A stretch of 64,000 bases of DNA from Clostridia bacterium (GTDB lineage Bacteria; Bacillota; Clostridia; TANB77; CAG-508): contig JBJFFC010000003.1 of the NCBI GenBank assembly GCA_051891395.1, positions 40,300 through 104,299 of the forward strand, in the 5' to 3' direction. A model generated the notes under the pieces. That model did not search any database. It was not told where the DNA came from and worked only from the letters and a program-made list of their open reading frames with translations. The number at the start of each line of letters is the position of its first letter. Position 1 is the first letter of the stretch. This document shows positions 27,222-27,429 of this stretch, one piece after another. A program made the translations under genes and the position numbers.

Positions 27222-27429
27222 TACAATTCACAGCTTATTAATTTAGACTTGTATAAAAAGGTTCATAATATATTATTTTCTAAATACCGCGTAAGCGACT
27301 AAACAAGCAAAGCGAGTGCGATTGGAGCAACTTACAGACATGTCGACTTTAAATCTGGAAGTTGCGACACACAAGGTATAAAGAAATAATATATTATGAA
27401 CCTTTGAAAATAGATTACTGTGAATTGTA
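27222..27429 (+). repeat. Family B long-hairpin element (full copy)
   Basis: Conserved core accgcgtaagcgac...gcgagtgcgattggagcaactt...aagttgcgacacacaaggtat, flanked by ~60-nt copy-specific complementary arms (tacaattcacag ... ctgtgaattgta); fills the hpf-recO intergenic space. Confidence 0.8.

Follow-up and report, generated by a model that had tools for sequence, protein, structure and literature searches.

A dispersed repeat of low-GC uncultured gut Clostridia is very probably a MITE with a selected folded core

A dispersed repeat in low-GC, uncultured Clostridia of the gut is very probably a MITE with a selected, folded core. The evidence points to purifying selection on the core as a folded single strand, most probably plus-strand RNA; we infer that the core acts as RNA rather than single-stranded DNA, and that it serves the element itself and not the host. 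As a MITE the repeat is ordinary in its movement, and its unusual property is that the best-conserved part is the central fold and not the ends. The stretch of DNA analysed, hereafter the window, comprises 64,000 nucleotides of a Clostridia bacterium contig (JBJFFC010000003.1), with a G+C content of 28-31% and almost every gene on the minus strand, which is G-rich and therefore presumably the leading strand.

The element is non-coding, 165-340 bp in size, and consists of terminal inverted repeats, subterminal complementary arms that are specific to the subfamily, an AT-rich collar and a core of ~95 nt that is richer in G+C and more conserved than the element ends. The terminal inverted repeats are GTTACWRTTCAG, TTCAAGTTTCGAC or ACAATGCTGTCAAC, paired around the core. 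On the plus strand the core forms a four-way junction with helices P1-P4. P1 (ACACC/GGUGU) closes the junction and runs on into the collar, P2 (GC-GUAA-GC) is a small hairpin capped by a GNRA loop, P3 (CCAA-A-CGAGC-loop-GCGAG-UGCGA-UUGG) contains a 5-nt bulge and tandem G.A pairs, and in P4 (GCAACCUAC-loop-GUAGGUUGC) the loop is free. From P4 a nearly invariant strand of 9 nt, GACACACAA, leads back to P1. The analysis confirmed three features that had been read from the sequence before, namely the GUAA hairpin, the CCAA/UUGG helix, and the GCAAC.../...GUUGC helix, whose loop varies.

Three full and two decayed copies lie in the window. The family is present at all five positions given in the original prediction (27222-27429, 35201-35363, 49270-49436, 20262-20386 and 31428-31466); the locations held, and the extents of the full copies were corrected to 27220-27431, 35195-35370 and 49269-49437. 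The core motifs described as shared occur three to four times each in the window, all on the plus strand, against a shuffle expectation of 0-0.18: TTGCGACACACAAGGT four times, ACCGCGTAAGCGAC four times with one occurrence mismatched, and GCGAGTGCGATTGGAGCAAC three times. Searches of the whole window with nhmmer and a covariance model, filters off, recovered only the three full copies (covariance-model scores of 130-137 bits). All three fold into a single long hairpin each (z-scores of -6.5 to -10.8).

Copy 1 (27220-27431, plus strand) occupies the hpf/recO spacer and ends 1 nt from the RecO stop codon. Its left end is TCTACAATTCACAG (a degenerate GTTACAATTCACAG) and its right end CTGTGAATTGTAAC, an internal loop interrupts the arms, and a target duplication is no longer recognisable. 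Its core (27284-27379, plus strand) consists of P1 (ATACC/GGTAT), P2 (GCGTAAGC, 27289-27296), P3 (CTAA...TTGG, 27299-27325), P4 (GCAACTT.../...AAGTTGC, 27327-27365) and the junction strand GACACACAA (27366-27374). Copy 2 (35195-35370, plus strand) lies in the fabG/fabF spacer within the fabD-fabG-fabF-accB-fabZ-accC operon of fatty-acid synthesis, antisense to the operon. It has ends of the ACAATGCTGTCAAC type, here CCCATACTGTCAAC / GTTGACAGCGTTGG, of which the left matches that type at 11 of 14 positions; its inner arm is perfect over 19 bp, and its target duplication is absent or decayed. The core (35235-35332, plus strand) has P1 as ACACC/GGTGT, P2 at 35240-35247, P3 at 35250-35279, P4 at 35281-35318 and the junction GACACACAA at 35319-35327. 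Copy 3 (49269-49437, plus strand; ends GTTGCAGTTCAG / CTGAATCGCAAC) has a GLUG-motif gene on one side and an FtsX-family gene ~0.8 kb off on the other, and is flanked on both sides by a perfect 8-bp duplication, ATTTTTTC (49261-49268 and 49438-49445). Its core (49309-49398, plus strand) contains P1 (ATACC/GGTAT), P2 (49314-49321), P3 (49324-49350), P4 (49352-49384) and the junction GACACACAA (49385-49393).

The two decayed copies are also on the plus strand. The copy at 20262-20386 keeps the left arm, the collar, the 5' side of P1 and P2, and has lost the rest; after P2 it carries the ~56-nt insertion variant also found in L032. This core variant, with the insertion (…AGCTAMCGCATACTGCCACTGTAACAAKCAAAGCTTTAACAGTGGACAGCAA…) directly after P2, spans 20304-20386 in the window and 5386-5560 in L032. 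In the second decayed copy (31405-31480), a remnant of the left end (TAATGTTGTCAAG) is followed only by the core's 3' portion (TTGCGACACACAAGGTGT) with the right collar and arm; the deletion spans the left collar to the 5' side of P4. A near-perfect AT-rich palindrome, AAAAAAGTAAATGCTTTTTTAAAAAAACATTTACTTTTTT, lies directly to its left at 31353-31392.

Beyond the window, more than 200 further copies were found in Clostridia genomes and in metagenomes of gut, rumen and wild mammals. An exact-pattern scan with one genome per species, in which the pattern fixed P2 and the 3' half of P3, returned at least 111 loci in many Clostridia MAGs; hosts among the matches listed are uncultured Clostridia and other Bacillota from the gut of human, mouse, rabbit, chicken and sheep. 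Because that pattern fixed parts of the core, the metagenome set was picked with a different anchor pair, and this second scan added 96 loci, including some from samples of alpine shrew and marmot. An open reading frame of at least 100 aa covers only 2 of 117 copies. A scan of viral contigs gave no matches, and the full element searched by BLAST against plasmids and phages gave chance-level matches only. That the core is unlike any named Rfam motif, as had been supposed, is borne out by searches of the whole window against Rfam 15, with no matches at the gathering threshold and, in E-value mode, only generic long-hairpin microRNA models far under threshold. Similarly, the core strings had no matches in the full text of the literature or in the supplements of a human-microbiome RNA-motif survey.

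Three of the four core helices covary in two independent copy sets. In the genome set (94 copies, structure-blind MAFFT alignment), 93.1% of cells are paired compared with 80.6% in shuffles, and the covariation score is 0.291 compared with 0.094, a value reached by 0 of 500 shuffles, with the reservation that the copies share descent and such shuffle controls therefore overstate significance. Slid controls reach a covariation of 0.086 at most, and 31 pairs are altered on both sides. The metagenome set replicates the result (94.8% paired vs 76.5%; covariation 0.447 vs 0.133) in an alignment that was fitted to a covariance model of the same structure, so that its pair counts lean towards that structure. 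In this set, one P3 pair is GC in 44 copies, AU in 37 and GU in 4, and a pair in P4 alternates between CG (48) and UA (41). P3 variants alternate between CGAGC...GCGAG and CGAAC...GUGAG, one variant has Watson-Crick pairs in place of the tandem G.A (CUAAGC/GCUUAG), and insertions within the P3 hairpin are themselves paired. In P1, Watson-Crick pairs make up 97%, and a single position shows up to four of the standard pair types.

The loops behave differently from the stems and junctions. The loops of P3 and P4 vary in sequence and length, whereas the unpaired junction, the bulge and the GNRA loop are almost invariant; in copies not selected on that motif, the exceptions in the P2 loop are GCAA in one and AUAA in another. 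In L033, L049, L062, L066 and L092 the P4 loop is expanded by a nested hairpin of 25-60 nt (GTTGAAAGAT...ATCTTTCAAC, at times with a further insertion), and thus it tolerates large insertions. Free loops, covarying stems and fixed junctions together argue for selection on a folded single strand rather than mere recency, and they uphold the earlier reading of the core as a conserved structure of an RNA or single-stranded DNA element. A small peptide encoded in the core was rejected because the frames, read by eye, hold stops and no start codon, and resemblances to a kink-turn, a tRNA-like fold, group II domain V, an IS66 end and a hairpin ribozyme were considered by eye and dropped.

The main competing explanation is a neutral MITE, the centre of which would be conserved through recent spread only. 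Template-switch correction of quasi-palindromes can produce compensatory changes in inverted repeats even in the absence of selection, and the whole element is indeed one long palindrome; the arms show no strand bias in wobble pairs, and the shared descent of the copies inflates the shuffle statistics. However, recency would conserve everything equally, and the conservation observed is uneven: in one and the same set of copies the loops of P3 and P4 are free to vary and the arms and ends have split into subfamilies, while the unpaired strand GACACACAA, the bulge UGCGA and the loop GUAA remain near-invariant in hosts from human to shrew, marmot and sheep. We therefore regard the neutral account as unlikely.

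Arm mismatches comprise 94 G:T and 113 A:C, and without a strand bias the arms behave as DNA inverted repeats; their complementarity persists across strongly diverged arm sequences, again without wobble bias. They had been described as copy-specific and unrelated between copies, but about 100 copies placed side by side show a few types that recur across genomes. Type a reads TTCAAGTTTCGACTTTTTGCAAGTG..., type b GTTACWRTTCAG...GAAAGGTTA... and type c, to which window copy 2 belongs, ACAATGCTGTCAACTTAAGGTGTAA. Type d (L004, L006, L010, L018, L055, L084, L087, L089, L096 and L098) is a c-like element placed between two inverted GGGACATGGGGACGTAGATAATGTCCC units, each of which is a small hairpin, and some d-type flanks extend the palindrome (in L089 by TGCAACTT / AAGTTGCA). 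Window copies 1 and 3 have b-like ends and share the outermost inverted repeat (G)TTRCARTTCA. Arm seeds were almost never found without the core and are practically always paired around it, so that the arms are part of the element; their origin by insertion into pre-existing palindromes, which the original prediction had named as a possible refutation, is thereby rejected, and the notion of separate palindromic repeats was rejected on the same grounds. The nearest-neighbour core is of the same arm type in 48 of 61 copies. Cores thus cluster with arm type, which indicates one diversifying lineage and not a core captured repeatedly. Separately, three elements of 322-340 bp (L003, 297-637; L031, 3412-3734; L094, 4103-4435) resemble 'Russian dolls', with an outer pair of GTTAC-type ends, perfect 8-bp duplications and a second, GTAAC-type inverted pair inside, around the core, an arrangement suggestive of nested or compounded MITEs.

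Several observations bear on the strand and on the nature of the folded molecule. At two C-G pairs of P3a in the metagenome set, U.G pairs number 25 compared with at most 10 other mismatches, and anchor-based wobble counts in the same set are 15 for the plus strand and 5 for the minus strand. By folding energy the plus-strand core is the more stable in 126 copies and the less stable in 48. Taken together with the wobble counts, this is a weak preference for the plus strand; single-stranded DNA also accommodates G.T wobble, GNNA loops and tandem G.A pairs, so the folded molecule may be DNA instead of RNA. The prediction that all copies are directed against the flanking genes is correct for the window copies and fails as an absolute rule, being replaced by a bias of ~3:1 over 117 copies: both neighbouring genes run opposite to the plus strand in 56-59 copies and along it in 19-21. 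The GC skew is reversed at the sense copies too, so the bias is not assignable to transcription rather than replication. An orientation set strictly by replication was considered and rejected, the sense copies lying in regions where the GC skew is flipped as well.

Mobility is evident in target duplications and in empty sites. Perfect 8-bp duplications occur at the fixed boundaries of 16 of 36 a- and b-type copies and of 0 of 74 displaced controls. They are found in 8 of 19 a-type copies (a count that leaves out one mis-paired row) and in 8 of 17 b-type copies, with three more of the latter showing one mismatch; a boundary-blind scan was too permissive, with 22 matches compared with 15 in the control. 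The duplicated target sequences are varied and AT-rich, and no fixed short motif stands beside the insertions. Filled and empty alleles are paired among related genomes, including L022/L089 and L084/L098. In L022 the element lies between two copies of CGTGACAA in the left arm of a terminator-like hairpin, which is intact in L089, the empty allele of that site, and the fabG-fabF spacer of L099 is apparently too short for the element that is present in the window. Further, two metagenome contigs from the window's own species (L210 and L211) stop ~92-97 nt upstream of fabF, where their ends adjoin or fall inside the fabG-fabF MITE, as a dispersed repeat breaks short-read assemblies. The earlier preference for something other than a simple MITE finds no support, because terminal inverted repeats, 8-bp duplications and filled and empty alleles are the hallmarks by which a MITE is defined.

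The d-type subfamily is less regular. No target duplication is visible in it (outer units GGGACATGGGGACGTAG...). At one site, L084 and L087 carry the whole d-type element, asymmetric arms included, in opposite orientations, and at the same locus L098 lacks the element and keeps one 26-nt outer unit, GGACATAATCTACGTCCCTATGTCCC. Terminal-repeat inversion, reinsertion, hairpin slippage or an assembly effect are possible causes of these allele differences; a d-type element without duplication, and an empty allele that keeps one outer unit, do not fit simple cut-and-paste.

These features give some room to another mobile system, an IS200/IS605-type palindrome-associated element (PATE) or a REPIN-like doublet, whose mobile form would be single-stranded DNA and whose Y1 (HUH) transposase would recognise the hairpins. 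Such elements are likewise hairpin-forming, non-coding, multi-copy and made of paired inverted units, and the hairpin architecture of the repeat fits. The d-type resembles a doublet, with L098 retaining a single outer unit like a REP singlet beside it; the GGGACAT...ATGTCCC subfamily lacks target duplications, and the orientation is biased relative to replication. REPINs and PATEs, however, depend on Y1, insert 3' of a fixed short motif, and have subterminal hairpins in place of terminal inverted repeats in the transposon sense, with no target duplication. Here, window copy 3 and the two subfamilies with the best sampling have genuine terminal inverted repeats and duplicate 8 bp of varied, AT-rich sequence, away from any fixed short motif. 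In addition, clustering of the open reading frames within 2.5 kb of the copies gave housekeeping families only, with no recurrent transposase candidate. The PATE suggested earlier is thus contradicted for the a- and b-types, and for the repeat as a whole we consider such a system very unlikely. The attC-like site proposed beside it fares no better. In attC sites the conserved R''/L'' and L'/R' boxes are at the ends, the centre is variable, and the sites form cassette arrays beside an integron integrase; the pattern here is reversed, with a conserved centre and variable ends, and the copies occur one at a time among housekeeping genes (hpf/recO, fabG/fabF and the FtsX-family gene). For the subfamilies of the window, the MITE features exclude both an IS200/IS605-type element and an attC site.

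A non-mobile origin, as small-RNA genes or cis-regulatory RNAs of the host that are dispersed and happen to sit in hairpins, would account for the RNA-like conservation and covariation of the core, for its GNRA loop and for the occupation of some loci in several species. It is slightly less probable still, since mobility is indicated by the terminal repeats, by the target duplications, by sites that are empty in close relatives and, at one locus, by an inverted orientation; truncated copies and assembly breaks at the element point the same way. The copies are associated with no gene family, no conserved upstream promoter or terminator for the core is present, and no convincing promoter was found upstream of the core on the plus strand. 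An inverton, in which the arms would be inverted repeats for a site-specific invertase flipping a promoter in the core, is barely credible: long inverted repeats do flank a segment of ~100 bp, L084 and L087 differ in element orientation at one locus, and a weak conserved promoter-like TTGCGA-16/17-AATAAT points outward at the 3' side of the core, but that inversion takes in the asymmetric arms to the termini and not the core alone (and could be a reinsertion or assembly effect), hundreds of copies with target duplications lie between housekeeping genes, their orientation is biased ~3:1 and not mixed, and a promoter does not explain the conserved spacer and junction nucleotides.

A transposase source for the MITE was sought among related loci. 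An autonomous insertion sequence with the same ends was not found in 1.48 Mb of such loci, where a scan for inverted repeats with an 8-bp duplication, 650-3000 bp apart, gave one chance pair only, and no element ends without core were found beside a transposase-like open reading frame. We infer mobilisation in trans by a DDE-type transposase. As a possible lead to the parent, the c-type end ACAATGCTGTCAACTTAAGG is identical to the left end of IS1A, GGTGATGCTGCCAACTTACTGAT, at 13 of 14 consecutive positions, a likeness confined to one end type. IS1 duplications are 8-9 bp, with which the 8 bp found here are compatible; the other end types (GTTACWRTTCAG, TTCAAGTTTCGAC) have no obvious IS1 resemblance, however, and no IS1-like transposase gene was seen near the copies. 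Clostridial IS6-like elements also make 8-bp duplications (PMC6807381). A second MITE in the window (28394-28588) shares the kind of ends (GTTACTGTTC... / ...CTGCACAGTAAC) but not the centre, which is G+C-rich and unrelated (…CCGTGGGGACCGCTGAGAGCTGT…ACAGCTCCAGTGGGAAG…). It is flanked by a perfect 8-bp duplication, TAAAAATT, and also folds as a long hairpin. This second MITE suggests a single transposase acting on elements whose structured centres differ.

Among known repeats, bcr1 and related repeats of the Bacillus cereus group are MITE-like, belong to the Firmicutes and are often transcribed with flanking genes, and their predicted RNA secondary structure is reportedly kept through compensatory changes. 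Their own sequence differs from that of the present family, and they use a specific short target, TTTAT, in contrast to the 8-bp duplication of varied sequence seen here; no four-way junction core common to bcr1-type subfamilies with different ends is known. Correia elements (CREE/NEMIS) of Neisseria are also small and non-coding, with terminal inverted repeats and many intergenic copies. They are co-transcribed with neighbouring genes as long hairpins, as the present element probably is in host operon transcripts. The Correia elements differ in duplicating TA, in belonging to Proteobacteria, in having their ends as the conserved part and in being without a multi-helix central junction with invariant unpaired nucleotides. 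They are also found inverted, comparable to L084/L087 here, and their hairpins are cleaved by RNase III (PMC10969869).

A mechanism consistent with these data can be proposed. A transposase supplied in trans would make 8-bp staggered cuts in AT-rich intergenic DNA, giving 8-bp target duplications, and ageing copies lose these duplications and are eroded by internal deletions, as seen in the two partial copies of the window. In most copies the host operon transcript would carry the minus strand, in which the long arms could form a double-stranded hairpin like that of other bacterial MITEs, by analogy with Correia elements a likely substrate of RNase III. The core would act as plus-strand RNA serving the element, and the orientation bias might stem either from counter-selection of the active strand within operons or from an insertion preference linked to replication. 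The core RNA may be processing, self-cleaving or protein-recruiting, carried as cargo by a MITE that spread through gut Clostridia. We only tentatively suggest that the core represents a new functional class of structured RNA, defined by its four-way junction, GNRA loop and invariant 9-nt joining strand.

In a large group of uncultured gut Clostridia, the repeat, as a MITE, accounts for breaks in assemblies and for differences in the length of intergenic regions, and it provides a ready marker of strain-level variation. The ~95-nt core is nearly unchanged across host animals and across subfamilies with diverged ends. If it is an active RNA, it would constitute a new RNA class at perhaps a hundred copies per genome, and a bacterial transposon would have been selected for its RNA cargo or fold rather than for its transposase-binding ends.

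Another long-hairpin repeat family of ~120 nt (ATGAGACAAGAGGGACAGGTCTTT ... AAGACCTGTCCCTCTTGTCTCAT) is present in the window, with full copies at 7239-7358 and 53315-53432. Its GGGACAGGTC motif also occurs at 32864 and 35403, and a fragment bearing this motif lies ~30 nt to the right of MITE copy 2.
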